DNA of 64,000 nt, from NCBI GenBank assembly GCA_051439505.1, contig JBFRWI010000174.1, positions 1 through 64,000 on the forward strand, given 5' to 3'. The DNA is from Hormoscilla sp. (GTDB lineage: Bacteria > Cyanobacteriota > Cyanobacteriia > Cyanobacteriales > Desertifilaceae). Position 1 is the first letter of the stretch; each line of letters starts with the position of its first letter. Positions 5,774 to 42,045 of this stretch are shown piece by piece. Made by a program: the position numbers and the translations under genes. A model generated the notes under the pieces. That model saw only the letters and a program-made list of their open reading frames with translations, made no database searches and had not been told where the DNA came from.

Positions 5774-5812
5774 TGACCACACCCGGTGTTAGCCTATGAT
5801 TTGCGTATTTTC

Positions 5813-7105
5813 TCAGAAAAGCTCTAGCTGAATTTGTTTAGCTGCACGAGAGCTAAAATACGCTGGCTCGTATTTTCTTGTTTCCTGCCACGTAGCATAA
5901 ACACAATACTCGAACAGTTCTTTCTTGCTGTTTCGTTTTCTGACTATCTTGCTTCCAATGTTGGTAAATCCTAAAGATCTAAGGGAATCTTCAAGCAACT
6001 GTTCGGTGTGGACTTGTACGCCATAAAAGCTAGAATTACCTACGATGTAAGAAAGAACCGCGCCCTTTTTCAAACGCGGACGCAAGTTCTGAAGATGCAA
6101 ATGCATGTCATGAAAATACTTCCAAACATAGTTCCCCATCAGTAAGGCATTTTTTTCTTTCGTTTGAAGTATGTCAGAAACAACTGCTTTCAATGATTCC
6201 GGTAGTTCAATAGCATTTGATTCCCAATACTGCAATCTGCTAGTGGCAATACCCCATGTTCCACCTATTGCTTTCCAATCAAGTTCACCCGCTTCACGGG
6301 CGGTATCAAGAAACTTAGTCCAATACATGTATGGCCTCAGTTCGCGAATGTAACTTATTCTGTTCGGGTAAGGAGGAGACGTGATAACATGGGAATATTG
6401 AAAATCGCCAATTGAAGTAGGTTCCCTTGAATCTACAAAATGAACGGACGAATTACCAGATATATTCTCACCAGCACTTTGAATAATTGCTTCTAATATC
6501 TCCAGGTACAAATATTCTATCTGTTCAATTTCAAACGCGGTTACTTCATTATGAAATGACATTGAAACATGATTAAAAGCAGCAGATGAGGTTTCAATGA
6601 TTAGCCGACAGAATGAAATCCAAGCAAGAGATGAAACATGGTTGTCCCTTGGTTCTCCAAACTGATTCACCAATGCTTGACGAAGTGCGCCAAGAACTTT
6701 AAGCGTCTGTCCGCACCACCATCTTTTAATGTTGTGAATGTTTGGCAACCAGTTATCTTCATCCACAAGTTCTTGCCATTTAATAATAACTTTGTAAATG
6801 GATATTTTTAATTCCTTAATTTCGGAATAAGAGTAGTTTATACATTTAGAATTCCCGAGCCATATTAAAAACGGGTTGATATCAAAGCAGTGTGCAGAAA
6901 TGCCATGTTCGGCAGCGACAAGTCCAGTTGTTGCTGTTCCTGAAAACGGGTCAAGTATAAAAGAATCTTCAGGAAGATTCTCAATTATCTCTTCAACCAG
7001 TTTGACCGAATATGCGGGAGTCAGCCGCAACCATCCATGTCTCCCAAGTTTCTTGTTGTACTTGAACGTGTAGTCCGAACGTTGCTTAATCTTCATATCC
7101 ATCAT
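5813..7105 (-). CDS. Amino-DNA methyltransferase, probably m4C alpha class, of a type II R-M system
   Basis: Motif I DPFSGTATT precedes motif IV TSPPY; 4-bp overlap with the upstream gene. Confidence 0.85.
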   Translation of the reverse strand: MMDMKIKQRSDYTFKYNKKLGRHGWLRLTPAYSVKLVEEIIENLPEDSFILDPFSGTATTGLVAAEHGISAHCFDINPFLIWLGNSKCINYSYSEIKELKISIYKVIIKWQELVDEDNWLPNIHNIKRWWCGQTLKVLGALRQALVNQFGEPRDNHVSSLAWISFCRLIIETSSAAFNHVSMSFHNEVTAFEIEQIEYLYLEILEAIIQSAGENISGNSSVHFVDSREPTSIGDFQYSHVITSPPYPNRISYIRELRPYMYWTKFLDTAREAGELDWKAIGGTWGIATSRLQYWESNAIELPESLKAVVSDILQTKEKNALLMGNYVWKYFHDMHLHLQNLRPRLKKGAVLSYIVGNSSFYGVQVHTEQLLEDSLRSLGFTNIGSKIVRKRNSKKELFEYCVYATWQETRKYEPAYFSSRAAKQIQLELF

Positions 7106-7911
7106 TCAGCACTCAGCAGGGTTTCAAGGACATCGTGGATTTCTTCTTTTATCTCTGTACTGTGTTGCTGGAAGAAAGCAGCCAAGTTATAACCGAGAAT
7201 TTGTTCGCAAAATGCGTACAATGATGTTTTGTTGTTGCCGTTTGTTGTACCGATAAGAATACCGCAACGGTTGTTTCTGTATCTCAGAACAAGATCGGAA
7301 TCAATCTGTGACGAAAAAATAGCAAACACGGGCAGATAGTTATTTGCCCATGCTACGGTAGCATTATCAATATCTGCATTTTGACGTTTGGAATCCTTGC
7401 TTTTATAGCCTTGGCGGACTTCAAAAACAATTCCGTTTGATGGTTCCGACACTTCCGCCAAGTCTTCACAGTAGTCTGTTATCCAATGTTTGACATTATT
7501 AAGTACAGTTTGATTCTTTATTTCACCAAGTTCTAATCTACCATCAAGAGACAGTTTTTTTGCTTTTCCTGACTGTGTATGTGCCGTGTATGACCACGTT
7601 GCTAACTCGGGGTCTGTGTATCCAGTGGTATCGACCAGCACTGCACGAAATAAACGTTCGCAACCGATACCAATTTGACGATATACAGATGTCATTCCAC
7701 CCGCTGCACGGTGGGCGGAATACATAAGGTCAGTATCCAGACCTAACCAAGCATAGAATGGATCTGAACCATATAGGTGCTTAAATTGGTTTAGGGAAAG
7801 ACCGTCGTCATTTTTGCCTTGCCCAAATTTAGGTCGGTAGTCCTTGCACTTCCCGATCGGTTCCAGAAAGGTTTCAATGTATTTTTTTTCTTTCGTTTCC
7901 ATTTTTTTCAA
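7102..7911 (-). CDS. Putative type II restriction endonuclease
   Basis: Coupled to the methyltransferase; PD-(D/E)xK-like LDG...FEVR; AT-rich. Confidence 0.65.
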   Translation of the reverse strand: MKKMETKEKKYIETFLEPIGKCKDYRPKFGQGKNDDGLSLNQFKHLYGSDPFYAWLGLDTDLMYSAHRAAGGMTSVYRQIGIGCERLFRAVLVDTTGYTDPELATWSYTAHTQSGKAKKLSLDGRLELGEIKNQTVLNNVKHWITDYCEDLAEVSEPSNGIVFEVRQGYKSKDSKRQNADIDNATVAWANNYLPVFAIFSSQIDSDLVLRYRNNRCGILIGTTNGNNKTSLYAFCEQILGYNLAAFFQQHSTEIKEEIHDVLETLLSAE

Positions 7912-7931
7912 CTTTAGTTACGTGTTTGTCG

Positions 7932-8008
7932 GGCTAACTATGAATTCAATGTCAGATTTGCGCTTATCGGCTCCACTCCGATCTTATCCGTCAGTTTTGC
8001 GCTTATCG
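7932..8008 (-). other. attI-like integron recombination site preceding the R-M cassette
   Basis: On the minus strand, two GATAAGCGCAAA(A/T)CTGAC direct repeats are followed by AATTCATA-GTTAGCC. The exact inverse core GGCTAAC lies after the MTase stop (5788-5794). Confidence 0.55.
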
Positions 8009-8392
8009 CCCCCTTATTGGGGTAGCGTTCCATGGTGCGATCGCCTAATATAATCCGACTGACCACAACTTTTACTACTTTACAGGCTACATTTCAATAA
8101 CCTCAACAGTAATTATACTTAATTGCAATCTTTAACCGATAAAATTTTATTTTGCTGTCAAGCAACCGATCGCCGAATCCAATCAGACTGGCTACAACCC
8201 AGTGTAGAAGGAGGAAAACTGTGGCGATCTATGACCACAGACCGGAAAATTATCAAAAGTTTCTTATCTGCACTTGACAGAAAACAGAAAAATGCGTTAA
8301 AATAAACGTGACTGGGATCTGAGCAGATGCCAGTCAAACGAGAGAAAAAAGCCAGATCGCAATTTCAAATTTACAATTACCAATCGCCAAAG

Positions 8393-10540
8393 ATGAAATC
8401 TCCAGTAGTTGTTAGACAGCACAATATAGAAGACTGTGGTGCAGCAAGTCTTGCTACTATTGCCAAATATCACGGGCAAATTTTTAGCATCACCCGCACC
8501 CGCGAAGCTGCCGGGACAGGACAACTTGGCACCACATTACTCAACCTCAAGCAGGGGGCAAAGGTGCTGGGTTTCAATGCCCGGGGCGTGAAAGTCCCAT
8601 TGGAATTAGTCGATAACCAGACCATACCCCTACCGGGAATTATTCACTGGAAAGGCAATCACTGGGTAGTATTGTACGGGCGACGGGGTAAAAAGTATAT
8701 TATTGCCGATCCAGTTGCCGGAATTCGCTCCTTATCTAGAGAAGAACTGGTTTCCGGTTGGAGTAATCGCGCTATGCTGTTACTGGAACCCCGTCCCGAT
8801 TTTTATCAAATAGCCGACGATCGAGACAAGGTTAAGGGTTTGTGGCGCTTGTGCGGACGCCTGTGGAACTATCGCCCTATTCTCGCGGAAGCGTTGCTGC
8901 TTAACTTCGCGATCGGGTTGCTTTCCCTCACTTCTCCATTTTTAATTCAACTCCTTACTGATGACGTGTTGATTAGAGGCGATCGGGATCTGCTGACGGG
9001 GGTGGCGATCGCGGTTTTGGTAATGAATGTAATTGCCATCAGCATCAGATTCGTGCAATCAAACCTAATTGCACATTTTGCCCAACGCCTAGAGTTAGAT
9101 TTAATTCTCGAATTTGGCAGAGTAATACTGAGTTTGCCCCTCTCCTACTACGAATCTCGTCGGAGTGGCGAAATTACGACTCGCTTGCGAGATATTCAAG
9201 AAATCAACTTCCTGATCTCTCAAGTTGGCGTTACCTTGCCCGGTCAATTTTTTATCGCCATAGTTTCCCTGGGCTTTATGCTGTTCTACAGTTGGCAACT
9301 GACGATAGTTTCTTTCTCGATCGCGGGCTGCATGACTCTCTCATTCCTAATTTTATTGCCTACGGTCCGCAATAAAATCAGGAAATTATTAGTTGTCAAT
9401 GCTGAAAATCAAGGGGTTTTAATCGAAACATTTAAAGGCGCGATCGCTCTGAAGACTACAAATGCTGCTCCCTACTTTTGGGAAGAATTTCAAAGCCGAT
9501 ACGGACATCTAGCTCGCGTGACTTTGCGGGCGACCCAACTGGCGATCGTTAACAATAGCTTCTCTCAATTCTTCTACAGAAATGGCGGGATTATCTTACT
9601 CTGGTTAGGGAGTACCCTGGTCATCAACAAGCAATTAAGTATCGGACAACTGTTAGCTTTTAACAGCATGAATAGTAATTTATTGACCTTAATTGTTACC
9701 ATTCTGAGCTTTATCAATCCCTTCACCCGCGCCCAATTGGCTACCCAACGGATTGCGGAAGTAATTGATGCCACTCCCGAGAGTCGAGAAGATACTCAAA
9801 AACCCGTAGCCTCCATTCCCGCTGATGCCGAGATTATTTGTACCGATCTCAACTTTCATCATCCCGGCAGAGTCGATCTACTCCAAGAATTTTCTCTCAG
9901 TATTCCCGGGGGAAAGGCGATCGCCCTGATTGGCGAATCCGGTTGCGGGAAAAGCACTCTCGCTAAACTTATTGCTGGTTTATATCAGCCCCAGTCTGGC
10001 AATATTCGCTACGGTATTTATAACCAGCAAGACCTTTCCCTGGATTGCCTGCGATCGCAGGTAGTCTTAGTTCCCCAAGATGCTCATTTCTGGAGTCGGA
10101 CGATTATTGAAAATTTCCGTTTAGCGGCTCCACAAGCTACCTTAGGAGATATAGTTCGGGCTTGCCAGATTGCTAGGGCCGACGAATTTATCAGTCAACT
10201 GCCCGACAAATATCAAACTGTCTTGGGTGAATTTGGCGCGAATATTTCCGGCGGGCAAAAGCAACGATTGGCGATCGCGCGGGCCCTGGTTACAAATCCG
10301 CCCATCTTGATTTTAGACGAATCCACTGGGGCCCTGGACCCCGTGAGTGAAAGTAAAGTGCTAGACAACGTATTGGGCGATCGCCAGGGAAAAACTACAA
10401 TTCTAATTAGCCACCGTCCGAGAGTCATCCAACGGGCCGATTGGATTATCCTGTTAAAAAATGGTCAACCTCACCTTCAAGGCACTCCATCCGATTTGCT
10501 CCTGATACCGGGGGACCATCTAGATTTCCTCAATCCTTAA
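8393..10540 (+). CDS. Peptidase C39-containing ABC exporter (LanT-type)
   Basis: QHNIEDCGAA and HWVV/DP C39 motifs, transmembrane domain, Walker A GESGCGKS, signature ISGGQ, Walker B ILILDE. Confidence 0.92.
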   Translation: MKSPVVVRQHNIEDCGAASLATIAKYHGQIFSITRTREAAGTGQLGTTLLNLKQGAKVLGFNARGVKVPLELVDNQTIPLPGIIHWKGNHWVVLYGRRGKKYIIADPVAGIRSLSREELVSGWSNRAMLLLEPRPDFYQIADDRDKVKGLWRLCGRLWNYRPILAEALLLNFAIGLLSLTSPFLIQLLTDDVLIRGDRDLLTGVAIAVLVMNVIAISIRFVQSNLIAHFAQRLELDLILEFGRVILSLPLSYYESRRSGEITTRLRDIQEINFLISQVGVTLPGQFFIAIVSLGFMLFYSWQLTIVSFSIAGCMTLSFLILLPTVRNKIRKLLVVNAENQGVLIETFKGAIALKTTNAAPYFWEEFQSRYGHLARVTLRATQLAIVNNSFSQFFYRNGGIILLWLGSTLVINKQLSIGQLLAFNSMNSNLLTLIVTILSFINPFTRAQLATQRIAEVIDATPESREDTQKPVASIPADAEIICTDLNFHHPGRVDLLQEFSLSIPGGKAIALIGESGCGKSTLAKLIAGLYQPQSGNIRYGIYNQQDLSLDCLRSQVVLVPQDAHFWSRTIIENFRLAAPQATLGDIVRACQIARADEFISQLPDKYQTVLGEFGANISGGQKQRLAIARALVTNPPILILDESTGALDPVSESKVLDNVLGDRQGKTTILISHRPRVIQRADWIILLKNGQPHLQGTPSDLLLIPGDHLDFLNP

Positions 10541-10706
10541 ACTTAAGCTAGGGGAAAAAGTAACTACAGGAATTCGGCGTTAGTCGGGAATAAAAATTGC
10601 TGTTGATAAGTGTTACTTATCACCAAAACCCAAGGAGACCCACGCGATCGCCTCCTCTCAAAGAGAATGGAGGTAGAGCGGCAGGTCTTCTTCCATTGCT
10701 TTGGGT

Positions 10707-11411
10707 TTATCCGTAGGATACAGTGCTAAAGGTGACGTCATCATTGCCAGGGTTATATCGGGCGTAGGTTGCTAGACCTTGGATGCGCCCTACAGATCCA
10801 ACGCCGACAACGCGGCGGGGTGTTTTCCCCTGTTCCTGTGGCTCCTGTTTGCCGTCTAGGGTCGTGACTGTTGAGCGGAGTTTACCGGGAGTCACCCAGC
10901 ATTCAAAGGTCAGCCCCGATCGCCCACAAAATAGGGTATTGGCATCGGCACGGATGAGGCGATCGCACAACTGAATCGCAGGTGTGTCCGGTGTCAGTTC
11001 ATCGGCATAGCTAACGGTACTGCCGTGGATGAGTAAGCAGTCCAACTCATGAAATCCGAAGTGGAGCGATCGCAACCACCCCACCGACTCCCGCGATACC
11101 GATTCCCACAGGTGCTTGACCCCATCGCCCCCAAATTGGGCCATCAATTCGGGGGCATCCGGCAGTCCACTCAGCCCATGCAAACTAAAGCATTGCTCTT
11201 CCCACCAACCGATACAAACCTGAGGTTCGAGTTCTCCCGAACGAGGCGATCGCAGTCGCTCAATCACCGCCTCATTGTCCCCCTTTAGCCCGATCGCATC
11301 TCCCACGACGTATAGGTCAGTGACCGGGCTGCGCTGTCGTCTAATATCCTGCAACACGGCTTCATAGGCTGCCAGGTTGCCTTCAATTCCGCTCAAAATA
11401 GCCCATTGCAT
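10707..11411 (-). CDS. Metallophosphoesterase-fold protein with degenerate metal ligands
   Basis: SGIEGN, GDAIG, GWWEE, HGS and GRSG replace the DxH/GD/GNH/H/GHxH motifs. Confidence 0.8.
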   Translation of the reverse strand: MQWAILSGIEGNLAAYEAVLQDIRRQRSPVTDLYVVGDAIGLKGDNEAVIERLRSPRSGELEPQVCIGWWEEQCFSLHGLSGLPDAPELMAQFGGDGVKHLWESVSRESVGWLRSLHFGFHELDCLLIHGSTVSYADELTPDTPAIQLCDRLIRADANTLFCGRSGLTFECWVTPGKLRSTVTTLDGKQEPQEQGKTPRRVVGVGSVGRIQGLATYARYNPGNDDVTFSTVSYG

Positions 11412-11447
11412 CTGCGAACCTCCTTGAATCTGAACCGGACAGGCCCC

Positions 11448-11882
11448 CTAGAGAGAATCTGTGAGGGCGATCGCCCGTTGCTGCATGGTCTTGAAAATAT
11501 TGTAGAAACCATTGCTACGAGACGGGGTGAGACTGACATTTAGCCCAGTTTGCTGAATAAAGTCGGGGGACAACTGCACAACCTCTTCCGGTGGGATGCC
11601 ATTGAGTCCTTCCATCAATAGCCCCACCAGCCCCTTGGGAATTTGAGCATCGGCATCCGCCTGGTAGACAATGGACCCGTCTTGAAGGGTAGCGGTGAGA
11701 TACACCTGGGAAACACAGCCCGGTACCCGATAAGCGGAAATCTTGGCCTCATCGGGAAAAGGCGGCACGCGCTTGGCAAACCACAGCAGATATTCGTAGC
11801 GTCGTTTCGGTTCAGTGATGCGCTGAAACTTTTGAATAATCTTTTCTAAATTTGGAGGCAGTTGCTGGGTAGTGGAAGTCAT
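11448..11882 (-). CDS. sufE: SufE family sulfur acceptor
   Basis: VPGCVSQVY and ADADAQIPKGL motifs, SRSNGF. Confidence 0.92.
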   Translation of the reverse strand: MTSTTQQLPPNLEKIIQKFQRITEPKRRYEYLLWFAKRVPPFPDEAKISAYRVPGCVSQVYLTATLQDGSIVYQADADAQIPKGLVGLLMEGLNGIPPEEVVQLSPDFIQQTGLNVSLTPSRSNGFYNIFKTMQQRAIALTDSL

Positions 11883-11960
11883 TGTTCAACGGTTAAGCTT
11901 ATGAATTGGTGTCATCTGAATATAGCGCATGGGTACACTTTCCTCTTTGAAGAGTGACCA

Positions 11961-12057
11961 TCAGAAGAGTGATTTGTGAGCTGGCCTGCCCGGCTTGCAT
12001 TTTTTCCTGTAATTCTTCAAGGGGAAGTGCGCCCAAATCTCCAGATTGACGCGATCG
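11961..12057 (-). pseudogene. thrS: 3' fragment of a thrS paralogue
   Basis: RSRQSGDLGALPLEELQEKMQA, then a frameshift to AHKSLF*; matches the C-terminus of ThrS at 38160. Confidence 0.7.
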
Positions 12058-12195
12058 CCCTCGTGCTGCGCGGCTGAAATAATCCACCAGTCGGATAGTG
12101 GATCAAAGCCTTGCCCCAAAAGCATTTTGAATTCTGAATTTTGAATTTTGAATTCCGCGCAGCGGCCCTCGTTGGCATCCGGTACCTTCCTTGGT

Positions 12196-12681
12196 TCAAA
12201 GTTGAGTAGGATTGGGAGCATCCCCATAGACGGCGACGGGGTCAAAAGTTTTGGTGGTTTCCGTAAGCACGAGGGCAATGGGCAGACTCGCCTTAACATC
12301 GCCCTCACCAGGAGAAATCTGACGGTAAAAGCAAGAGCGATAGCCCACATGGCAACTGGCCCCTGACCCGGCGACCTTGACCTTCATCCACAGGCAATCT
12401 TGATCGTCATCGATCAATAATTGCTGCACGGCCTGCACCAGCCCACTGGTGGCTCCCTTGTGCCAGAGCTGCTGACGGCTGCGGCTGTAGTAGTGGGCTT
12501 CGCCGGTTTCAAGGGTTTTTAGCAACGCCGCTTCATTCATATAGGCGTGCATCAGCACCTCGCCGGTTGCAGCATCCGTGGTGATAACGGGGATGAGCCC
12601 ATTGGCGTCAAACTTAGGGGCCAAGAGCATCCCTTCTTCGACAGCTTCAACTGAAGTCCGGGCAGAAAATTGTGATGACAT
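12196..12681 (-). CDS. hisI: Phosphoribosyl-AMP cyclohydrolase
   Basis: [32 protein letters not shown]; start reassigned to MSSQF. Confidence 0.92.
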
Positions 12682-12731
12682 AGGACAGAAACAATGAATA
12701 TCGCTGGTCGAGAGCAAATAGACTGCCAGAA

Positions 12732-12746
12732 TGACAATCATTCTAA
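12732..12746. promoter_or_regulatory. Probable Zur box upstream of hisI
   Basis: TGACAATCATTCTAA, 11/14 match to TGATAATNATTATCA. Confidence 0.5.
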
Positions 12747-12799
12747 TTATAGATTGAGGTTTTCTCGATGTCCAGTTTTGGCAAGTCAATCGTTTCTTT

Positions 12800-12938
12800 T
12801 GCTGGCAAGACGGGTGGCGCGATCGCGGTCCTATGTGGCAAGCTGATTGCCAGAAAGATTTCCGAGCGCTGGTTGACCGGAGGAAGCGGCGGGTTGTTTT
12901 TGCTGTTTGGGGCGATCGCGATCGTCGAGAGCTTATAA
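12800..12938 (+). pseudogene. C-terminal fragment of a TMEM165/GDT1 (UPF0016) membrane protein
   Basis: Reads [39 protein letters not shown]; no 5' part is present. Confidence 0.55.
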
Positions 12939-13192
12939 ACTAGCGATCGCAGTTATCGACAATCCAGCTTGGCGGTAATTGTCGCACTGCGAGATGCCCT
13001 GGGTCGCGTCTGCCAGGCGCGGTCTGCGGCTGGACGCTGTTGGTGGTGCTGGTGGCGGCGATCGCCCTAGGCAGTGCTGACGCGAAGGAGTTCTGATGGA
13101 GTCGCCTGGCCCGGAAGCATCGGGCTTACTTAAACTCCGAACAGGTGCCCCCCAGGCCGGTCACAATGGTACAGGTATTGTAAACCAGCATG

Positions 13193-14670
13193 CCGTTACA
13201 TAAGAATTACCCAAACTTACCCATTGCTGGACATACTTGGAACTCACTTCCTGGCAACACTGCTGGTAGTGTCGGCACTCACCAGTCCACAGGCTAACAC
13301 CGCCTAACTGGCGGCTTTTTCCAAATTAATCGAGGCGTTTAAGTCTCGGTCGCAGGAAAACCCACAATTATCACACCGGAAAACCCGCATCCTAAAGGGC
13401 ATAGATTCCTTTTTGGTCCCACACTGAGAACAAGTTTTGGTTGAGGGATACCATTGATCCACTACTACTAAGGTCGATCCGTACAATTCACACTTGTACT
13501 CTAATTGCCGCCTGAATTCGTAGAAGCCCATGTCACCAATAGCCTTGGCCAACTTGTGGTTCGCCATCATCCCTGACACAATAAGCGTCCTCAATCAAGA
13601 TCGAGCTGTGGTTTTTGGCGTTGCTGAGGTAGTAATTTTATGTAATGTATCTTTACGGATGTTTGCAATTTTTCGATGTAGGCGAGCTATCTTAACCTGG
13701 GCTTTTTTCCAATTAGCCGAACCTCTTTGCTTTTTCCGATTCAGCCATTGCAATCGCGAAAGTTGTTTTTCATATTTTTTGTAGCTTTTCGCCCCTTCAA
13801 ATCTTTCACCGGTTGATAGAACTGCTAGGCTTTTTATACCTAAATCTACCCCCACTACAGGGTAAGGCTTTTCGAGACTAACTGGCTCTGTTTCTATCTT
13901 AAAGCTAATGAACCACCGGTCAGCAGTTCTGGATATGGTTACTGACTTTGGTGCTGCACCGAATGGCAGTCTTTCATGTGTTCTTAGCCAACCAATCACT
14001 GGAACTCTAATCCCAAAATGATCTAGTTTGATAGATCCGTCTAATGTAAAACTGTCAGCGCGGCCTTTTTTCTTAAACCTAGGCGGCTTACTAACCTTTC
14101 GGAACGCCAGTCTCCATGCAACACGAGCGCTGTTTCAAGGCATATTGCGGAGCACACTTACTCACTTCATAGTACCAGGGATATTCTGGTTTTACCAGCG
14201 CTACCAACCACTTGTGTAGATCGATCGCCGTGGGGAATTTTATTTTTTCGGATGGATTGTCGCGATTGTGATCCAATATTTCCTTGGTCAGACGTAATCC
14301 CCAATTCCAAGCATGACGGGCCACTCCCGCATGTTTTGCCAGTAATGTGCGCTCTTTGTTGTTCAGTTTTAATTCTGTCTTAAAGCCTAATAACACGATT
14401 CGTGATATCCTTGACTTAACTGATAAAATCTAAGGGAGCTGAACGCTTCCTTTTCTGTTGTTTCTATTTTAACTGTCTCTCTGGATTAAGTTAACCGAAA
14501 TAATACTTAATTCTAGAGCGATAGCGCTGCGCGCGGGATTTTCATCCAATTGGCGATCCGGCCAATTGGATGAAAATCCCAGCATGCAGAAACTTGGGAA
14601 AAATCTAGACTCCTCATCCTTACCCAATTTAGCAACAATGTCCAAAGGGGTCAAACAATTTAGTTACAGC
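13193..14670 (-). mobile_element. tnpB: Decayed IS607-family element: frameshifted tnpB (14396-13304), tnpA largely deleted, ends retained
   Basis: Three consecutive ORF pieces (MLLGFKTEL..., VGVDLG..., CSQC..CDNC..DRDLNA); ends GCTGTAAC... and ...GGGTAAGTTTGGGTAA..GTAACGG. Confidence 0.85.
14535..14580. repeat. Perfect 20-bp inverted repeat with 6-nt loop
   Basis: GGGATTTTCATCCAATTGGC-gatccg-GCCAATTGGATGAAAATCCC. Confidence 0.9.
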
Positions 14671-18402: not shown

Positions 18403-18441
18403 TTAAGGGTAAAATTATTACGATCTATTTTCGCTTCTACC

Positions 18442-19889: not shown

Positions 19890-19926
19890 TTGAGTTAGGC
19901 AATGAATTGCACAGATTGTCGCCAAT

Positions 19927-30728: not shown

Positions 30729-33700
30729 TCACTTTCCAATTCTATGCAATGCCTCGATCCAGATCTTGAGTTCCTGCTCAGCCAGGTTTTTATCAGTCAA
30801 CTCTTGTTCCTGGTGGGCGATATAGGTATTCCGAAAATCATTGATGCGGGTAACGGTTTCCAAAAACTTGCGTCCGCCCTGAAACCGTAACTGAGTCTTT
30901 AAGGCTTCAAACACACCACCGATTTTCGTGGTGTCATTAAGTGCGTAGTCTAGGCACGATCGCAGCAAGCCAATGAGCGACAAGCCATTATTGAACAATA
31001 ACGTCCGTCTCAGATTTTGTGCCAATTTGCGGTAATAGTCCTCTGATTTACGGTCAACGCCACAGGGAGCAAACCAGGCTTTTTGGTCATCCACGGTGAC
31101 GGGCATTTCTGATTGCAGTCGCCGTACCAGAAAGCCTTTCGCCACTTCATCGATCGAACCCAACAGAGCGGTGAAAACAGGAGCATAATTCATGCCCTCT
31201 TTGTTCTCGAAGAAGCGGTAGAGCATCACTGCTTGGTCAGCAGCACGGCGATAGCGGGAAGGCAAAGCGTTGAGAACATCGGGATCGATAAAATTATCTA
31301 TAGCAGAGGTTTCTTCATCCACCTGCCCCAAGTTCGCGAACAGAGGTAAATCCTGAAATTCCTCAGATTGGAGCAGGTTTTGTAAGGCGGGGGCACAGGC
31401 GCGGGCCAGTTCGGCAATGCTATCCCCTGCCATGCGTTCAAATACCCCTTGGGGAATGTAGAGATAGTGCCATTGGGCTGTTTCTGTAGAAGCTGCTTCG
31501 CACCAGGCGATCGCGGCTTTAGCTTTCAAGGGTACATCCCGATCTTCTCGCCCCTTGGTTTCCACCAGGTAGTAGTGACCATCAATCGTGCGGATGAAGA
31601 AGTCGGGGGTGTAGAAGGCGAGGCGATCGCCATGAGCAAGATAGTCCACTCGTAAGCACTGGGATCCGGCGTTTTTGGCAAAGGCAGCAACATCGGGAGC
31701 GCGATCGCAGAACTTCGCCACTGCCACTTCTAACTCCCGGTTACAGGTAACGAGGTTAAACAGGGTCTTGGCTGCTTCCAATGCAGGACGGCGTTCGCTG
31801 AAGGTAACTTGAAAAGGTTTCCATTCGTTTAGGGATTTGGGAGGTTCAACCCTCAGCCGTTCTTCCGTGGTGGTAGTGCGGCTGCGGATCAAAGGAACAA
31901 AGACCGCCCGCAAGTGTTCCCCCACATCAGAATCAGCTAACCGGGCGACCAAAGCCGGATCGAACAGGGTAGTTTTCTCTTCAAACAGGATCTTTTCCAG
32001 GAAGGTCTGAATCAGAGGAGCGAGGATGGAATGGAGTCCTCGCAGTTTGCAAATCGTTTCCAGTTGTTTGACATAGTAGGAAACTGCACCAACTCCCGAT
32101 GCCAATAGCGGTAAATTGAGTTGCAGTTTCTCCACCACTTCACCTGTAAACAGGTGCCGTCCTTCGTACTGAATTTCGTTGTTGCCCTGTTTACCCAACG
32201 GCAACGGTTTATAGGGCTTAAAGGCTTTTTTCACATCCTGAATTGTCAACCCTTCCAGCTTGGGCACAATCCGAAAGCCAGAGGAAAGGGTGGGAATCTC
32301 AATATTCAGGGCATTCACATCCTTATGAGCTTCATCGGGGAAGATAGAAATCGTGGTAGCAGGGACGCGATCGAGTTCCACAATCTCCAGGGGCAAGCCT
32401 TCTTGCGCCAATTCCTGCTGATACAGACTGGCAAAGGCAGGATGTTCTACCACCGTCACCAGTTCATTCGCCTGACCGGGGGGAGTCATACGGCGCAGGC
32501 CCCGACCCAGGGTTTGTTCTGGCAAAATATTGGCTTTAGAACTGTAGGGACGCAGGGGCACAATCGTCGTCACGTTTCGCACATCCCAGCCTTCCCGCAG
32601 CATCAGCACCGAGACAATGCAGAAATAGGGGCTAGTATTGCTGTCGAGTTCCCGGCTGAGTTTCCGCAATGCTTTCAGGTCTTCATCGCTAATATTCTTC
32701 TCGTCTTCGACAAATTCATACCGCGCCCCTTTGCCGCGCCCCACCTTCTTCAGTTTGCCCTTGAGGTTGGTGTGCAGGTTGATAGTTTTGCCATTGAGTT
32801 GCTCAAACAGAGGGTCGGTATTGAAGCGTTGGGTAATTTGATTCGCGGCTTCAGTATTGTCACACATGATGAACAGTAAGGGTTTCTTGCTGCTGGCCTG
32901 CCATTCGGCTCTGCTGGCTTTCCAGCGTTCGTAACCCAGGAGTAAATGCTGCTCCCAACGGTAAGCGGCGTTGTCGTCGGCTTGTTCAACCAGCGTGCGG
33001 CTGGCTTGCCCAATCAGTGGGGTTTTGACGATGCCTGCATCGACTGCTTCCCCCAGGGGCGTATCGCAGACGACGTGCTTGAAAAGCAATCCCTTATTGT
33101 CTTTTGGGGTAGCAGAGAAATCCAGTTGTGCCACCAGCTTACAGCCGCTCCGAGACAGAATCGTTTCGTGCAGGGTGCGGATGGCTTCGTTCCAAGCAGA
33201 GCCAGAGTCCCAAACGTGGTGGGCTTCGTCGTTGAGTACCATCACCTGGCGATGGGTGGTGATTCTATCTCGCAGGGCAGCCCCGGTATCTAGGGCTTTC
33301 TTTTTGGAAATCTTCGGTCCCATCCAATCGTAGGTGTCAGCTTCCTTTCTGCTGCGCTTTTTAGGATTGTAAAGGCGGTGAATGTTTGTGAGGTAGAGGG
33401 TTCCGCCCGTCGCAGCACCACTGGCTTCATCTTGCAGCACTACAGACAGGTTCCAGTCACCCCGCCATTCCGGGGGAATCAGAGGGTCTTCGTCAAACAC
33501 GCGCCCGTTGCCAAAGTCCTCTTTGAGGCGTTCATAGACCGTGAGGTTAGGGGCAATGACGACAAAATGTCGCGCCATCTCTGAGTCTGATTCCCGTAGG
33601 GCGTGGAAGTAGCTCCAGACGATGCACAGGCTCATGACTTTGGTTTTGCCTGCCCCGGTTGCCAGTTTGAAGGCATAGCGGCCCCAGGCATCTTCGTCTT

Positions 33701-34121
33701 CGGTGATGCCCAGGGCTTGCAATTCCGCATTTGTGCCGCCAAATTCGGCGATGATTTGGGACAGGCATTCGATACGACGGACTTCTTTGAGATAAATCAG
33801 GGTTTCCACTGCCTCTCGCTGGCAGAAGTAGTAGCGAAACTCAAATTCCTCACCATCGGGCGTAATTTTGCGGTGGGCGCGGTTAAACCAGTGATTCAGC
33901 AGTTGAATCGTGGTGTCGCTGGCTCCAATGTAGAAAGCTTCTCGCCACTCTCGTACTGCCGATCGCAGGTTATTGACCAGATCGATGGGTGAGGCTCGGC
34001 GTCCCTGTTTCACCACAGCAGGGTCGCCGGATTTTTCTGCCCGGACGCGATGGGCGTTGGGTTCTTGCCAGGGGGCAAACAGGGGTTCGAGAACGGTGGG
34101 GTTGAGGGTGGATGAGGTCAT
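30729..34121 (-). CDS. res: Type III restriction enzyme Res subunit with C-terminal extension
   Basis: ATGAGKT, NDEAHH, FSATP, LREGWD, QTLGRGLR helicase motifs; PDF..VETKG nuclease motif. Confidence 0.9.
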   Translation of the reverse strand: MTSSTLNPTVLEPLFAPWQEPNAHRVRAEKSGDPAVVKQGRRASPIDLVNNLRSAVREWREAFYIGASDTTIQLLNHWFNRAHRKITPDGEEFEFRYYFCQREAVETLIYLKEVRRIECLSQIIAEFGGTNAELQALGITEDEDAWGRYAFKLATGAGKTKVMSLCIVWSYFHALRESDSEMARHFVVIAPNLTVYERLKEDFGNGRVFDEDPLIPPEWRGDWNLSVVLQDEASGAATGGTLYLTNIHRLYNPKKRSRKEADTYDWMGPKISKKKALDTGAALRDRITTHRQVMVLNDEAHHVWDSGSAWNEAIRTLHETILSRSGCKLVAQLDFSATPKDNKGLLFKHVVCDTPLGEAVDAGIVKTPLIGQASRTLVEQADDNAAYRWEQHLLLGYERWKASRAEWQASSKKPLLFIMCDNTEAANQITQRFNTDPLFEQLNGKTINLHTNLKGKLKKVGRGKGARYEFVEDEKNISDEDLKALRKLSRELDSNTSPYFCIVSVLMLREGWDVRNVTTIVPLRPYSSKANILPEQTLGRGLRRMTPPGQANELVTVVEHPAFASLYQQELAQEGLPLEIVELDRVPATTISIFPDEAHKDVNALNIEIPTLSSGFRIVPKLEGLTIQDVKKAFKPYKPLPLGKQGNNEIQYEGRHLFTGEVVEKLQLNLPLLASGVGAVSYYVKQLETICKLRGLHSILAPLIQTFLEKILFEEKTTLFDPALVARLADSDVGEHLRAVFVPLIRSRTTTTEERLRVEPPKSLNEWKPFQVTFSERRPALEAAKTLFNLVTCNRELEVAVAKFCDRAPDVAAFAKNAGSQCLRVDYLAHGDRLAFYTPDFFIRTIDGHYYLVETKGREDRDVPLKAKAAIAWCEAASTETAQWHYLYIPQGVFERMAGDSIAELARACAPALQNLLQSEEFQDLPLFANLGQVDEETSAIDNFIDPDVLNALPSRYRRAADQAVMLYRFFENKEGMNYAPVFTALLGSIDEVAKGFLVRRLQSEMPVTVDDQKAWFAPCGVDRKSEDYYRKLAQNLRRTLLFNNGLSLIGLLRSCLDYALNDTTKIGGVFEALKTQLRFQGGRKFLETVTRINDFRNTYIAHQEQELTDKNLAEQELKIWIEALHRIGK

Positions 34122-34124
34122 TGG

Positions 34125-34457
34125 TTAGGCAGTCGCATAGTCAGAATATTCGCGCATCGAAGGGTGATGGAATCCCACCACCATTTCTTTTTTGGAGATG
34201 CCCATTTCTTCTAGGTCTTTGTCAAGTTCAACATCGGTATTGTTTTCTTGAATCCAGATCTTGCCATCTTTTATATCAAAGTGAAAGACTGGATGATTGA
34301 TGCGTTTTTCTCCTTCCCAGCCAACACGAAGCAATAGATAATGATCTCGCTCTGAATCAATAACAAGTTGGGTCTCGACATCTTTTTCTTGCCACATATC
34401 AACATATTGGTCTAAGAACTTACGAATACTTTGGCGGTATTGTTCTAATCTATCCAT
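34125..34457 (-). CDS. xisI: XisI-family protein
   Basis: DSERDHYLLLRVGW, HFDIKDGKIWIQENNT, VGFHHP. Confidence 0.9.
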   Translation of the reverse strand: MDRLEQYRQSIRKFLDQYVDMWQEKDVETQLVIDSERDHYLLLRVGWEGEKRINHPVFHFDIKDGKIWIQENNTDVELDKDLEEMGISKKEMVVGFHHPSMREYSDYATA

Positions 34458-34861
34458 GATTGAATCTCCTTATTTGAAAGGTTATACACAAGTAGTTTTA
34501 CGGGGTAGGCTTGTAGAACTTTTTGAATTAACTCTTCGGTAAAAAAGAGGTCGTAAACGAGCCTGGGAACAGCTAAATAGAGGGTGCGATCGCGCTCTTT
34601 TTCTGCCAAAGCAACTTTGTAGCAAAGGTATTGTCCTAGAGCCGCGTAAAAGTCGGTAATCTGAGAGACTTTACTGAAGCTTTTGATTTCAACGGCTATC
34701 TTTCTTGTCCCTTTTTCTGCTCCGATGAGACTTTCTAAACCTAGATCGATCTGGACAGTAATTTTTCCAACCGAGATCGACAGTGGATCGTGAGAAATCA
34801 CCCATCCATCCAAAATCAACGTTTCTTTGACCCAGTCGTGGTAGCGATCTCTGGCAGACAT
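34445..34861 (-). CDS. xisH: XisH-family endonuclease-fold protein
   Basis: MSARDRYH..DGWVISHDPL, IAVEIKSF, ALGQY. Confidence 0.9.
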   Translation of the reverse strand: MSARDRYHDWVKETLILDGWVISHDPLSISVGKITVQIDLGLESLIGAEKGTRKIAVEIKSFSKVSQITDFYAALGQYLCYKVALAEKERDRTLYLAVPRLVYDLFFTEELIQKVLQAYPVKLLVYNLSNKEIQSWID

Positions 34862-34863
34862 GA

Positions 34864-36918
34864 CTACACCTCCACCTCTACGGTAATGGAGGTGTCGCAG
34901 CCGAAGGTATCGACAACTTTGACGCAGGCGGTATATTTACCGGGAGCAGGATAGGTGTAGTCCGCATCGCTGATGGTTTTGAGGCTGCGATCCTTGCGGG
35001 TGCGGTAGTCTTGCCAGTGGTGGGTGAAGGGTTTGCCGGGATGCCAGTTAAAGTCGATCGCCCAAAAATCAATAAAATCAAATCCACTACGGATCGCCCG
35101 TTCTTTGATGGCTTCCAGTTCCTTTGTAGGCACTTCGGCGAGGGAGGGGAGGAACTGGGTAAGTTTGATGTTCGTAGTAACGACTTTAGTCGTTGCTTTT
35201 CGGTAAACAGCCTCCGCCGCCAACACCGCCACTTCCAAAAACGGGGGCGGAGCCTTGCGATTCTTCTCCATAATTTCGCGGGGAATCTGCACCAGCTTTA
35301 GCTTCACACCCAACTCCTGCACCAGGGCATTCACCAGTAGATGCAAGTCCATCTCAAACTCCCAGGCAAGGCAATAGCACTCCCGCCCGCCCGCCTGCGC
35401 CGTCGCCTGCGCCACCAGTTTCGCTTCCTCGCGGGTAAACATGGAGTCGATGCCATCCACATGGCAGAATGCCCCGGCTTTGCGCCCATGCAGCAGGGGA
35501 GACGGCGTACTGGTCAGCACCTCGGCTTTGAAGAACTCCAGAATCACCCGCCGATGTTCCTCATCCGCCCCCTGCAAGCGGTCTTTTTGCCACCACTGCC
35601 GCTCGTAGCGTCCCAAATTATAGACATCAAAAGCGCGATAGGGTTTGTCCTCGTTGTGCAACTTGCGCTGAAGCTCAATCATCCGCTTGCGTGAGGTGTG
35701 AATGGCAAACCGCCCCAAGTCACACATCAACCACCTGCGCCCCAACCGCTCGGCAACTGCCCCAGTCGTGCCGCTGCCACAAAAGAAATCTGCCACCAGA
35801 TCGCCTTCGTTGGAAGAGGCTTGGATGATGCGATCTAACAGTGCTTCTGGTTTTTGGGTTGGATAGTCTTCTCTCTCTGATGAACTTGCACCCAATGCAT
35901 TGATATCATCCCACAAAGTTTGAATTGCAACTCCTAATCCCTCATCCAAGTACTGCTTTCTTTGCGGAACAGAACCAGGCTTAGTTTGTACAACCATTCC
36001 TTTACTAATTAAGTCTTGCATGGTCGCTTCAGAATAACGCCAATAACGGGTCACTCCCATAACCTCATATCGAGGATTTCCCTTTCCGCCACCGCCCGGA
36101 CCTATCATGCTAATTAGGCGATACCTGCGATTTTTTTTAGGCTCAATATACTTATAAAACTTGTCTACATACTCATCTGAGTAAGGGAGATATAAGGGAT
36201 TAAAATTTCTCTTCTCTGTCTTGCTGTAAGCAAATATAGAATCAGTATTGGAGTCTAATGAATCTTTACCTTGTCCAAAGTTACCTTTAATTGTATGAGC
36301 ACGCTTCCAAGTAATTTCATTGATAAAATTCTCAGTTCCAAATATTTCATCCATTATTTGACGAATATAACTATTCATTCGCCAATCACAATGCACATAA
36401 ATACTACCAACCTCTGATAAAAGTTCGTGTGCTAGAACTAGCCTTTCAAATATCATATGGAGATACGAGTCAGTGCCTTTACCCCATATGTCTCGATAAG
36501 CAACCATTTCTAGAGTAGATTGCTCCTTCTCAAGAGTGTCTGTTTCTTCACCAACGAGAACACTCATCGTAAAATCCGCCCCCACATCAAACGGCGGGTC
36601 AATATAAATCAGATCCACCTTGCCCTTAAACTCTTGCAACAGCGAAGCCATCACCAGCTTGTTATCGCCCCAGATCAGCCGATTCCTAAAATCATCCTGC
36701 CGCTTATTTTCGGCTTCAAACAACGATAACTGCTTCGCTGCCTCCGCCTCCCGCCTCGGTTCATCAATGCTCTCAATTTTCTGCATCGGCATCGCACACC
36801 CGGCAATATCCACCTCGCGGCGATTGCCATACTCGTCATACTTGCCCTCCCACACCAGTTCCGTGCGGAGCGTAGAGAGCGGGTGGGGGTTGTGGGGACC
36901 GTAGGTAGGCTGGGTCAT
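34864..36918 (-). CDS. mod: Type III Mod subunit (beta-class amino-MTase)
   Basis: IYIDPPF precedes YPTQKP and DFFCGSGTT; probable start MTQPTY. Confidence 0.9.
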
Positions 36919-36984
36919 GGGTAGTCTTCTGGTAAGCGTAATGGAGTCTGTAATATCAAGCAATGATTGCCGATCTCTTTGCAT
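36919..36984 (-). pseudogene. N-terminal stub of a HEPN (DUF86) toxin, in frame with mod
   Basis: [14 protein letters not shown] overlaps the MNT 3' end, as in MNT-HEPN pairs. Confidence 0.6.
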
Positions 36985-37306
36985 AAATAATCATTCCTGA
37001 CTCTAAAATTTCCTTGCGACGAAGCCAGTTACGACTATTTTGAATAGCAGTTTTACTGACAAAATCAACTTTTCTATGAAGCATCTTTTCTAGTTCTTCC
37101 TGTAGGTGCATTACCTCAAATAAACTATGCTTTGAACCTTCAGAGAAAAGATATAGAAAGTCAATATCGCTTGGCTCGTTGCCTCCGTCTCGAAAGTCGT
37201 CTCGTAGAACCGAACCAAAGAGTGCCAGTTCTTCAATTTTCCATTTCTCACAAAACATAGCCATTTGTTCAGGTGTGATACTCAACCCTTCGTAAATTTT
37301 TTGCAT
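36956..37306 (-). CDS. MNT-type nucleotidyltransferase antitoxin
   Basis: [22 protein letters not shown]; start MQKIY. Confidence 0.85.
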
Positions 37307-37469
37307 CGGTATAATTCCCGATATAACATATTTATTAATTCTTGCCCTGCCCCCCACTGACTCCCCCCAGGGGCTTTTTCGAGCCATTGTCTTCCATAGA
37401 CGGCGGCTAACCCCAGGGTAGCGAGTACGGATGTCAGGCCCAGACTAAAGCCAGCTATCAGCACTAACC

Positions 37470-37576
37470 CGCTAACTATGAATTATACGGATTTTTTCCA
37501 TCTAATCACCCCTATACGGATTTTCTTAAGATTTCATCTGTGTAACACCCCCCCATCTCCCAAAAAGCTTCTGGAC
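37470..37576 (-). other. attI-like site with divergent intI N-terminal stub
   Basis: Minus strand: AAAATCCGTAT direct repeats then AATTCATA-GTTAGCG. Plus strand encodes PKKLLD, like IntI N-termini. Confidence 0.6.
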
Positions 37577-37583
37577 GTGGGCC

Positions 37584-37860
37584 TTATCCCATCAACGCCA
37601 CCGTTGTCAGACCGAGACCGATGCAGACTGTGGCCAAAGCGCTGACCACTGACAGCCGCTGTATAACTCCAGCACCAAGGGGGGCTTTTTCGAGCCATTG
37701 CCTTCCATAGACAGCAGCTAACCCCAGGGTAGTGAGCACGGATGCCAGACCCAGACTAAACCCACCTATCGGCATTAACCCGTAGGTGATTTTGTGTAGG
37801 GCGATCGCGCTCAGCAGGGCCGATGGGCAGGGCACCAACCCACCCGAAATGCCAATGGGC
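37584..37860 (-). pseudogene. 3' remnant of a HoxN/RcnA-like Ni/Co transporter
   Basis: GISGGLVPCPSAL..SAIAL..FSLGLA..L; the 5' part is missing. Confidence 0.75.
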
Positions 37861-40052: not shown

Positions 40053-40192
40053 ATGCGTTCAATTTCTCGAATGATTGTCCTTCTCAATTTTACATGGAAT
40101 TTGCCACATTCATGCTGCTGCCACAGTCAAACGCGAGGTTTCGATAAAGTCAGGACTTATAATGTGGGTTGGAAAGGAACTACCCGGAGACA

Positions 40193-41440
40193 ATGAAGAA
40201 GCTCGTTTTTGCAGTTGCAGGGTACAATCTCGCCGAGACTGGCAGGATGATCGAGATCGCCAGGGAAGCGCGGAACCATTTCGATGTCATCTTTGCCAGT
40301 TACGGCGGGAAGTTCGAGGCACTGATAGAAGAGGAAGGCTTCTCGCTCAGAAAGATGGAGCCACGGCTTACGCGGGAGCAACTCGACCGTCTGCGCATTG
40401 TTCTCAGTGGGGAAACGCTGAACACGGTGGGATACCTATCCGTCAAGGATCTGAGATCCCGGATTCCGAATGAGATCGCGTTCTTCAAGGAGACCAGTCC
40501 CGCCGCCGTACTCACAGGCTGGTGCCTGAGCGTCACCATCTCAGCCCGCGCAGCCAAAGTCCCGTTTGTCAACGTCCTTCATTCTACGTCCGTCAGGGAG
40601 TACTACGAGGCCGGACTCCAGTCGTGGCCTGACCGGAGCAACTTCGCTCTTTTCCGGTGGCTGTTCGGAAATGACGAGGCGCGGATGAACCGATGGATAA
40701 GCAATTTGGTTTTGAAACTGGCAACTCCCGCGAAAGCGTACAACACCGTTGGACCAGAATACGGACTATCTAGGTTTAAGAACTTCATCGACCTGATTGA
40801 GGGCGATCGTACGCTACTCGCCGACATCCCCGATTGGGTAGGCTTCCCGGCAGTCCGCCCCTCGCTGCAATATGTCGGCCCCCTGCCCGCCAGGATAGAG
40901 ACATTCATTCCCGAAGAAGTGGCCTCAATGCCTCATGACCAGCCCATCGTGTACTTCGCCATGGGTAGTTCCGGCAAGCCGGGCTTGATTGCAGATATCA
41001 TTGAAGGCTTTAGACATAAGCCCTACTATGTCATTGCCCCGGTGAAATCTAACATAACTGACATGGATTTAGAAATCCCCTCCAATGTAATTGTCACGGA
41101 TTTCTTGCCAGCGCATAAGGTTAACCCTATGGCAGATGTTTCAGTTATTCACGGTGGTCAAAACACGGTCATGAACGCTTGTCTGTCAGGAACGCCAATT
41201 GTAGGCATAGGAATGCATCCAGAACAACAAGCCAACTTGGATGCTTGTGTAAGAAAAGGGTTTGCCATTCGTCTCAATAAAAAAAGAGTCACAGCATCTG
41301 CAGTGCTTGATGCGATCGACAAACTGCTAAACGACGCTAAAGCGAAAGAAGCAGTAACTAAATTTCAACAACAACTTATGGAGTGGGATGGGCCGACGAA
41401 TGCGGCCAAGTTCCTTTGTGACAAATTTGGGAGAGAATAA
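40193..41440 (+). CDS. GT1/MGT-like glycosyltransferase
   Basis: VYFAMGSSG and IHGGQNT..GTP..EQQAN motifs. Confidence 0.85.
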   Translation: MKKLVFAVAGYNLAETGRMIEIAREARNHFDVIFASYGGKFEALIEEEGFSLRKMEPRLTREQLDRLRIVLSGETLNTVGYLSVKDLRSRIPNEIAFFKETSPAAVLTGWCLSVTISARAAKVPFVNVLHSTSVREYYEAGLQSWPDRSNFALFRWLFGNDEARMNRWISNLVLKLATPAKAYNTVGPEYGLSRFKNFIDLIEGDRTLLADIPDWVGFPAVRPSLQYVGPLPARIETFIPEEVASMPHDQPIVYFAMGSSGKPGLIADIIEGFRHKPYYVIAPVKSNITDMDLEIPSNVIVTDFLPAHKVNPMADVSVIHGGQNTVMNACLSGTPIVGIGMHPEQQANLDACVRKGFAIRLNKKRVTASAVLDAIDKLLNDAKAKEAVTKFQQQLMEWDGPTNAAKFLCDKFGRE

Positions 41441-41449
41441 ATAGGAGAA

Positions 41450-41989
41450 ATGATGATAATTCGAGAAGCAACTGATTCGGACTTTGAAGATGTATTTTTA
41501 GTTGAGAAAGAAGCGTTTGGATATGATAAGGAGGCAAATCTCGTGAAGGATCTATTAGCCGATCCGAGTGCAAAGCCTTTTTGTTCATTGCTAGCTTTTG
41601 ATAATGATAGAGCCGTGGGGCATATTTTGTTTACCTCGGCACGTTTAGAGGGCACAAAAACTGATGTATCTATATCTATTTTGGCTCCTTTAGCTATCAT
41701 CCCCGCTTTTCAAAAGCGGGGAATAGGAGGCAAGCTCATAGAGCAAGGCTTACAGCACCTGACAAATGATGGCGTTGACTTAGTTTTCGTTCTCGGACAT
41801 CCAGAATACTATCCTCGTTATGGTTTTAAACCTGCGGGTGTGCAGGGATTTGAAGCTCCTTATCCAATAGCAGAAGTACATGCCAATGCTTGGATGGTTC
41901 AGGAACTACGTCCAGAGGCGATAAACAGCGTTTCTGGTAAAGTAAGATGCGCAGACATGTTAAATAAACCAGAACATTGGCGAGAATAG
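41450..41989 (+). CDS. GNAT acetyltransferase (YhbS-like)
   Basis: LAPLAIIPAFQKRGIGGKLI, VLGHPEYYPRYGF. Confidence 0.9.
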   Translation: MMIIREATDSDFEDVFLVEKEAFGYDKEANLVKDLLADPSAKPFCSLLAFDNDRAVGHILFTSARLEGTKTDVSISILAPLAIIPAFQKRGIGGKLIEQGLQHLTNDGVDLVFVLGHPEYYPRYGFKPAGVQGFEAPYPIAEVHANAWMVQELRPEAINSVSGKVRCADMLNKPEHWRE

Positions 41990-41996
41990 AGGTGAA

Positions 41997-42045
41997 CGCT
42001 AACAAGGTATTACAGTGGACGAGCCGCTGAATAACGTTGTTTGTG
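41997..42045 (+). other. Minimal or degenerate attC after the GT-GNAT pair
   Basis: CGCTAAC-AAGG-TATTaCAGTGG / CCGCTGAATA-ACGTT-GTT. Confidence 0.5.

Follow-up and report, generated by a model that had tools for sequence, protein, structure and literature searches.

The integron integrase (IntI) recombines the folded bottom strand of attC sites with attI or with chromosomal GWT sites (10.1101/2022.09.11.507474). Darracq et al. (10.1101/2024.07.02.601686) counted 783 defense systems in integrons; the types are streamlined, never exceed two components, and favor restriction of types II and IV. Here we describe a 64,000-nucleotide stretch of Hormoscilla sp. (assembly GCA_051439505.1, contig JBFRWI010000174.1, positions 1 to 64,000; called the window below) in which integron recombination sites adjoin a three-gene Lamassu operon and a type III restriction-modification (R-M) operon. 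An earlier reading of this DNA, made without database searches (the sequence-only reading), had described a shattered integron whose cassettes carry whole defense systems. Its observation of attC, attI, and IntI remains is confirmed, and all of its coordinates were verified. We estimate at about 80% the probability that the region is an insertion hotspot in which at least two chromosomal integron platforms have left remains, together with several true gene cassettes, of which Lamassu and type III R-M are full-size defense operons. Cyanobacterial integrons, attC sites without an integrase, and defense cassettes are already known; the new part appears to be oversized defense operons with demonstrable cassette boundaries.

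The sedentary chromosomal integrons treated by Darracq et al. resemble the window in presenting chromosomal defense systems as attC-bearing cassettes, but here the integrase has been lost, and one cassette would contain a Lamassu of three genes, another an entire type III system plus additional cargo. A further likeness, described for the bacteriophage resistance integron cassettes (BRiCs) of mobile integrons by Kieffer et al. (10.1101/2024.07.02.601719), is the Lamassu-like cassette brc128. The cassette brc128 has two open reading frames and an SMC-like protein that lacks Walker B, whereas the window cassette encodes LmuA, LmuC, and a 624-amino-acid LmuB. Cassette size has also been discussed. 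The 4-kb clustering rule of IntegronFinder is double the size of the biggest cassettes known (∼2 kb; Cury et al. 2016, PMC4889954), excision falls above 1.5 kb for some sites in tests extending to ∼3 kb (PMC5371416), and just one cassette of the Vibrio cholerae array, 4 kb in length, was never captured (10.64898/2026.03.17.712381). IntI can recruit cassettes from the single-stranded DNA of natural transformation (PMC12614218).

The attC clusters without integrases (CALIN) and the single attC sites of PMC4889954, which also reports integrons in Cyanobacteria, share with the window the presence of attC without an integrase. Unlike CALIN, defined as at least two attC sites less than 4 kb apart with no intI, the window's sites are separated by 4077 and 7162 bases, and because these gaps exceed 4 kb, IntegronFinder defaults would treat the sites as isolated. 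Single attC sites lacking an integrase (SALIN) and attG sites (Loot et al., 10.1101/2022.09.11.507474) involve cassettes at chromosomal GWT sites, like the type II R-M block in the relative G001 and the type III block at locus L100 (G, C, and L numbers are our labels for genomes, contigs, and loci). Unlike SALIN, the window retains attI sites and stubs of IntI next to its cassettes, which have the size of operons. Mobile integrons with attI-bounded cassettes and attI duplications (PMC12901181) likewise show repeated attI in a cassette region, but the unit repeated here includes the end of a host gene and an integrase stub. In our literature search, no title or abstract opening described type III R-M or three-gene Lamassu cassettes, and among the integron papers listed none mentions type III restriction; cyanobacterial attC surveys and supplementary tables could list them.

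The three main attC sites of the window (Table 1), at 19213, 23378, and 30622, carry AAC...GTT cores, paired L boxes, and two extrahelical bases, and their top strand is the strand of their genes. They were scored with a covariance model built from 13 attC sites that neighbor, in the correct orientation, intI genes or their remnants in further genomes from the same order; these 13 were chosen from 25 matches to a search grammar tuned on the window's own sites. In the training alignment, 91.9% of cells are paired and 11 of 18 pairs are changed on both sides, a level that none of 500 shuffles reached. The three hairpins score 52 to 64 bits on one strand versus at most 18 on the other, with E values of 1e-11 to 1e-14, and the next match in the window is the site at 41997. 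Five sites score on the model across the assembly, three of them in the window (150 of 1011 candidates were scored), while genus relatives have zero to three matches each. We conclude that the three hairpins are true attC sites; cores, bulged bases, and model scores all bear out their earlier description as well formed. An Rfam scan, which has no attC family, gave no match to the window hairpins and only two CRISPR-DR28 matches, at 43734 and 43898, inside a genome-wide repeat. The grammar itself was rejected as a detector: its first version missed the site at 30622, and its second found 5 matches with a score of at least 24 in the reversed genome versus 9 in the real one. Because it was unspecific, the covariance model was used in its place. 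Single attC sites also occur elsewhere in the assembly, at G000:C3:13240-13326, after a PIN-type gene pair beside gatB (also in G002), and at G000:C175:24335-24392, a short classic 58-base site.

Table 1. Features of the window, in order of position. Folding z-scores were computed for the bottom strand; cassette assignments are predictions.
Feature	Position	Strand	Basis or remark
R'' core of truncated attC, putative type II R-M cassette	5788-5794	-	truncated by a genome-wide repeat, whose end lies at 5774-5784
Type II restriction endonuclease and methyltransferase	5813-7911	-	PADLOC REase_II E 3e-67, MTase_II E 5e-23
attI, type 1	7932-8030	-	crossover G at 7938; upstream direct repeats
attC, putative HAD cassette	19213-19301	-	62.5 bits; folding z -3.3; HAD stop codon inside R''
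HAD_SAK_2 family gene, putative single-gene cassette	19296-19757	-	Pfam PF18143 E 1e-25; without recognizable 5' end
Internal integron integrase fragment	19812-19889	+	25 codons, profile positions ∼55-78
attC, putative Lamassu cassette	23378-23460	-	64.0 bits; folding z -3.6; homologous site after lmuB in L045
lmuA (Cap4-type nuclease), lmuC, lmuB (SMC-like ATPase)	23467-26988	-	PADLOC LmuA 3e-26, LmuC 2e-10, LmuB 1e-95
Non-cassette segment replacing Lamassu 5' end	27050-27335	-	single copy in genome
rcnA 3' copy E	27335-27392	-	ends at internal GTTAGCC
parB-like gene	27440-28402	-	Pfam ParB_N; between repeat ends 27413 and 28469; non-cassette by every test run
IntI N-terminal stub, copy 3	28590-28661	+	PPPSKKLLDV, core 28640-28659; with truncated attI
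rcnA 3' copy D	28662-28853	-	directly behind attI 28851
attI, type 2, copy 2	28851-28962	-	IntI N-terminal stub on + (core 28941-28960)
rcnA 3' copy C	28963-30576	-	split by 1.4-kb insert 29000-30404
attC, putative type III R-M cassette	30622-30707	-	51.9 bits; folding z -2.0; 22 bases past res stop
Type III mod (706 aa), xisH, xisI, res (1130 aa)	30729-36984	-	PADLOC MTase_III 6e-224, REase_III 3e-22; frames open
Minimal nucleotidyltransferase gene fused to mod start	36956-37306	-	Pfam Polbeta
rcnA 3' copy B	37370-37470	-	between attI 37470 and type III block
attI, type 2, copy 1	37470-37581	-	crossover G at 37476; IntI N-terminal stub on + (core 37560-37579) fused to rcnA stop
rcnA 3' copy A	37582-37858	-	position of the single G001 rcnA-like gene
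Glycosyltransferase and GNAT insert	40150-42072	+	between thrS and cysS
Degenerate minimal attC-like site after GNAT gene	41997-42045	+	19.1 bits, E 0.013; folding z -0.25

The gene identities proposed earlier were confirmed by Pfam and PADLOC. For the type III operon, the assignment comes from PADLOC and Pfam ResIII with visible DPPF and DEAH motifs, at scores below the NCBIfam equivalog cut-offs, and the activity is predicted. Homologues were gathered from 301 genomes (6) and from a metagenome collection (58 loci, of which 17 without the 3' end were not counted). At 21 loci with at least 79% identity that include the res 3' end, an attC followed res by model match in nine, and six more keep an attC remnant by eye, four of those being near-identical to each other; close homologues thus do carry the hairpin, as the sequence-only reading required. 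None of the 23 loci at 53 to 71% identity, and none of the 3 at 34 to 36%, has an attC after res. Twelve type III attC sites were inspected (the window's and 11 others), and nine retain the GTT, each then running into different DNA.

At L053 the type III unit is complete: it spans 6588 bp, starts with G|TTATCCCGC behind an attI-like site, and its R'' is complementary to that start over 12 bases. The same start lies behind an attI-like site at L105 and, at L100, at a site without attI features. In genome G104, a type III block of 7366 bp occupies a site that is empty in its relative G303. The cargo that flanks or separates mod and res varies between loci and putatively comprises xisH/xisI, PIN-like pairs, Uma2-like genes, and nucleotidyltransferases. 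The nucleotidyltransferase of the window also accompanies mod at L100 and L104 (81 to 85% DNA identity). The complementary 5' core, the conservation up to G|TT, the varied contexts, and the empty site found among the homologues argue that type III R-M with small toxin-antitoxin-like cargo (6.6 to 7.4 kb) is a single cassette. The type III attC is interrupted by an element of ∼25 bases at an identical position at L052, L059, L061, and L069.

The Lamassu operon of the window is complete, with all three frames open; PADLOC and Pfam support its assignment, its activity is predicted, and a sequence search of LmuB against solved structures gave no match. Six homologous operons were available, one from the 301 genomes and five from a genome collection. 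At L047 the order is an intI 5' stub, attI, G|TTATACGG, lmuA-lmuC-lmuB, CCGTATAAC with an attC-like arm, and three further attC sites; this unit measures 3796 bp, with 11 complementary bases at its two ends. The unit at L048 (3777 bp) has an attI-like site and an attC of 70.7 bits, with ends complementary over 9 bases. An attC stands right after lmuB at two of the six loci by model and at three by eye; L040, L046, and L049 have no attC at the Lamassu locus. From these matched ends, the three-gene Lamassu (∼3.8 kb) likewise reads as a single cassette. Behind the Lamassu attC of L048, positions 8176-13775 hold an operon of cytosine methylase, MORC-type ATPase, and Z1-domain genes, which may be a cassette of still greater size.

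Neither window copy fits the clean single insertions pictured earlier, as the 5' cassette ends have been replaced. Homology of the window's Lamassu to the intact leader stops at 27048, so its 5' core is lost, and the segment that follows at 27050-27335 is presumably, judging by a tail motif, a 3' remnant of an IS605-type tnpB. The type III operon has lost its own 5' core too, its leader being replaced by rcnA copy B.

Might the attC sites instead belong to small cassettes that landed behind pre-existing defense operons, with the operons then spreading by transformation or transposition and dragging the hairpin along? Such a history would be in keeping with the missing 5' cores, with the close homologues that have no attC (L034, L035, L046, and L049), with the short repeat that flanks the G104 insert, and with published data that long cassettes excise poorly. 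It does not account for the 5' cores 3.8 or 6.6 kb upstream that complement R'' over 9 to 12 bases and stand behind attI-like sites at L047, L048, L053, and L105. Moreover, no small gene lies between the last defense gene and the attC, a distance of 6 bases for lmuB and 22 for res, and conservation stops at G|TT. We consider this explanation improbable and retain the operons as putative cassettes in their own right.

Evidence for the platforms comes from attI and integrase relics. The attI-like motif AATTCATAGTTAG has three copies in the genome, all within the window, and the three sites named earlier (7932, 28851, and 37470) can be aligned with the attI regions that precede intI in other cyanobacterial genomes. 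The site at 7932 shares 24 of 28 bases with the attI of the intact intI at L002, which lies upstream of that gene, and has no IntI stub beside it. The sites at 28851 and 37470 share 76 to 78% identity over ∼40 bases with the attI regions of L008 and L013, and each has an IntI N-terminal stub ∼90 bases upstream on the opposite strand. The window therefore contains two distinct attI types. The stub, PPxxKKLLDV, occurs in three copies (28640, 28941, and 37560), resembles the IntI start PPPRKLLDV at L013, and had gone unnoticed in the sequence-only reading. The IntI fragment that this reading did report, which reads KSQVAASTQNQVFSALLFLYREV, matches the integron-integrase models TIGR02249 (E 1e-4) and PF13495 only, and is the only such match in the genome.

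The assembly, a 6.47-Mb draft that is 93% complete and in which the window is contig C174, was searched for an intact integrase that could act in trans; it contains no full-length integron integrase, only the 25-codon internal fragment and the three 10-codon stubs. Nor does it contain a PF00589 tyrosine recombinase domain, which is present in all 14 control genomes; possibly the lineage is without XerC/D, or the assembly has a gap. No integrase above the family cut-off was found in four genus relatives, three of which have no TIGR02249 match. Among 41 genomes searched, IntI above the cut-off occurs in 2 and fragments occur in many, so decayed integrons are common in this order. We conclude that the locus is what remains of an integron with several platforms, now decayed, and that such relics are common in cyanobacteria. 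At L030 (1054-13472) and L029 (1225-3172), in genus relatives, attI-like relic repeats adjoin a fusion of methyltransferase and reverse transcriptase, a pPIWI-RE island, and a pair of patatin and cyclic dinucleotide synthase. At L023 and L024 (G003 and G004), tandem repeats of ∼450 bases each include the type 2 attI region's upstream part but lack its GTT core.

The sequence-only reading thus stands in proposing IntI-type sites, whole multi-gene defense systems as cassettes, and a decayed integrase, supported respectively by attC model scores, homologue cassettes, and integrase-fragment matches; none of the three outcomes that it had named as fatal was observed. It does not stand in deriving them from one integron. 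A single array shattered in place, its cassettes dispersed over 36 kb by later rearrangements, would put three good attC sites, a truncated attC, and all three attI sites on one strand, as they are, and would place three of the five genome-wide attC matches within 12 kb. The two attI types, three IntI N-terminal stub copies, and separate internal intI fragment speak for more than one platform, however; host genes syntenic with G001 (feoB, an oxidoreductase, sufE, and a hisI-like gene) lie in native order between the blocks, and the type II block is found at other places in G001 and G004. A single shattered array is accordingly a quite improbable origin, and we keep the reading of at least two platforms in an insertion hotspot.

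The hotspot can be delimited against G001, which is ∼95% identical and syntenic and has the order thrS, a small gene, one rcnA-like gene (matching NF007454 and PF03824), and the oxidoreductase whose window counterpart starts at 22757. Positions 22.8 to 37.6 kb and the 40150-42072 insert are absent from G001. The window has rcnA only as five 3' copies, 88 to 98% identical to each other: three are fused at the stop codon to an IntI stub and attI, and two start right behind an attI crossover. On the simplest reading, the integrase of an integron located behind rcnA was lost and further copies of the unit then arose, perhaps through recombination of attI with a GTTAG site in rcnA; because the junction carries 8 extra bases, we infer that last step and give it about even odds. 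One low-depth contig links 37517 to 28599 via 36 shared bases, which fits a circle or duplication and equally an assembly join across the repeat, and it was not used. That the repeated rcnA/attI blocks are an assembly artifact or strain chimera is scarcely credible, despite five to six partial repeats in 10 kb and the shortness of the public contigs compared, none of which spans the region, since the rcnA copies differ by 2 to 12% and two sequencing runs (which may be the assembly's own source) cover 30 of 30 bins at even depth outside repeat elements.

An abundant repeat element has also marked the region. Its end, GGGTGTGGTCA, has 504 copies in the genome, which rules it out as part of the integron system; in the window it lies at 5774, 27413, 28469, 29000, 30395, 51981, and 52422. 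The insert in rcnA copy C has inverted ends of this element and a 9-base target duplication at 28991 and 30405, and such a pair of ends around 1.4 kb suggests a family of miniature inverted-repeat transposable elements able to carry genes. A tandem 22-base repeat occupies 30086-30261, and its family has ∼65 copies elsewhere in the genome. HIP1 occurs 48 times between 5 and 43 kb, a density that, like the xisH/xisI genes and the named records of close homologues, marks the DNA as cyanobacterial. The 3' end of feoB is present in partial rearranged copies at 18090-18401 and 22855-22949; one of them is inverted, and breakpoints fall close to HIP1 sites. Duplication of host gene ends has taken place here more than once. 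Positions 13195-19926 stand in place of a metal ABC transporter operon of G001 and contain a broken tnpB, a FAD monooxygenase, a methyltransferase, and the HAD gene with its attC.

Three smaller units complete the inventory. The putative type II R-M cassette (∼2.15 kb) takes the first position behind attI: it starts at the crossover of the 7932 site with GTTAGCC (at 7938), to which all 7 bases of its R'' core, GGCTAAC, are complementary. A copy 98 to 99% identical lies in G001 at the 3' end of a ruvC-like gene and starts at the same GTTAGCC. The truncated attC recognized earlier at 5788 consists of the R'' core and four further bases, and the site is cut after these 11 bases at the same point in the window, G001, and G004; an attC match in fitting orientation was found at 2 of 23 homologue loci. 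The unit and its attI lie inside a lanthipeptide-type cluster (467-10540), flanked by lanM at 2296-5499 and a C39 peptidase ABC transporter at 8327-10540; a gene for a 610-amino-acid TnpB/Cas12f-like protein precedes lanM.

The HAD gene has a strong attC across its stop codon and no 5' core. It had been proposed as a defense cassette, a role that we do not endorse: it is not a recognized defense gene, and it had no match in PADLOC. The minimal attC reported after the GNAT gene (41450-41989) looks real in form, yet it scores weakly and lies on the opposite strand, and the insert ends ∼30 bases beyond its supposed crossover. HAD and GNAT genes as cassettes elsewhere are unsupported, with attC at 0 of 17 HAD loci and at 0 of the 14 GNAT loci fetched (of 16 matches). 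No defense cassette stands behind the attI at 28851.

Several observations weigh against our preferred interpretation, that IntI moved these operons as cassettes into a multi-platform hotspot. Four of the six Lamassu homologue loci and 12 of the 21 close type III loci have no model match right after the gene. Both window operons are without their own 5' core, so it is the homologues that make the case for their being cassettes here. A repeat of 9 to 10 bases flanks the G104 insert, and its crossover is G|GT rather than G|TT. The attC model is not wholly independent of the window, given how its grammar was tuned; the rcnA copies differ more than expected of fresh duplications; the integrase could be absent from the incomplete assembly only; and the case for recombination by IntI at these sites rests itself on site anatomy and junctions.

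The mechanism that we propose applies known integron chemistry to the site anatomy, matched ends, crossover junctions, and empty site that we observed. A cyanobacterial IntI would bind the folded bottom strand of attC and recombine it at G|TT, the partner being either attI or a secondary site in the chromosome, and an entire operon could thereby be transferred between genera as a single unit. In this lineage the integron would have stood directly behind rcnA, its integrase was probably reduced to a ten-codon stub, and the unit of rcnA 3' end, stub, and attI would subsequently have multiplied. Repeat elements and deletions may then have stripped both large cassettes of their 5' ends. With intI and these ends lost, the operons would have been frozen, leaving fixed defense loci with open frames, mobilizable only by an integrase from outside; such an incoming integrase could recombine attI 37470 with attC 30622, or the two attC sites with each other. 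Transformation may help long cassettes to fold and excise.

A broader reading, on which we are evenly divided, is that cyanobacterial integrases routinely move full-size defense operons, 4 kb to over 7 kb long, each as one cassette, and that the size limit drawn from Vibrio and clinical integrons is partly an artifact of the 4-kb search rule. The type III cassette would then be a nested collector of small toxin-antitoxin-like genes between mod and res, recombination of attI with the chromosome at rcnA would multiply the docking platform, and integron relics would be a hidden engine of cyanobacterial defense islands. Complete cassette ends on three-gene Lamassu and on type III units of 6.6 to 7.4 kb, found across several families of cyanobacteria, would roughly triple the cassette size known so far and would mean that the standard clustering rule conceals a cassette class. 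Operon-sized cassettes would be natural substrates with which to test length limits on recombination and cassette birth, and they may offer a route for the spread of restriction barriers among cyanobacteria.

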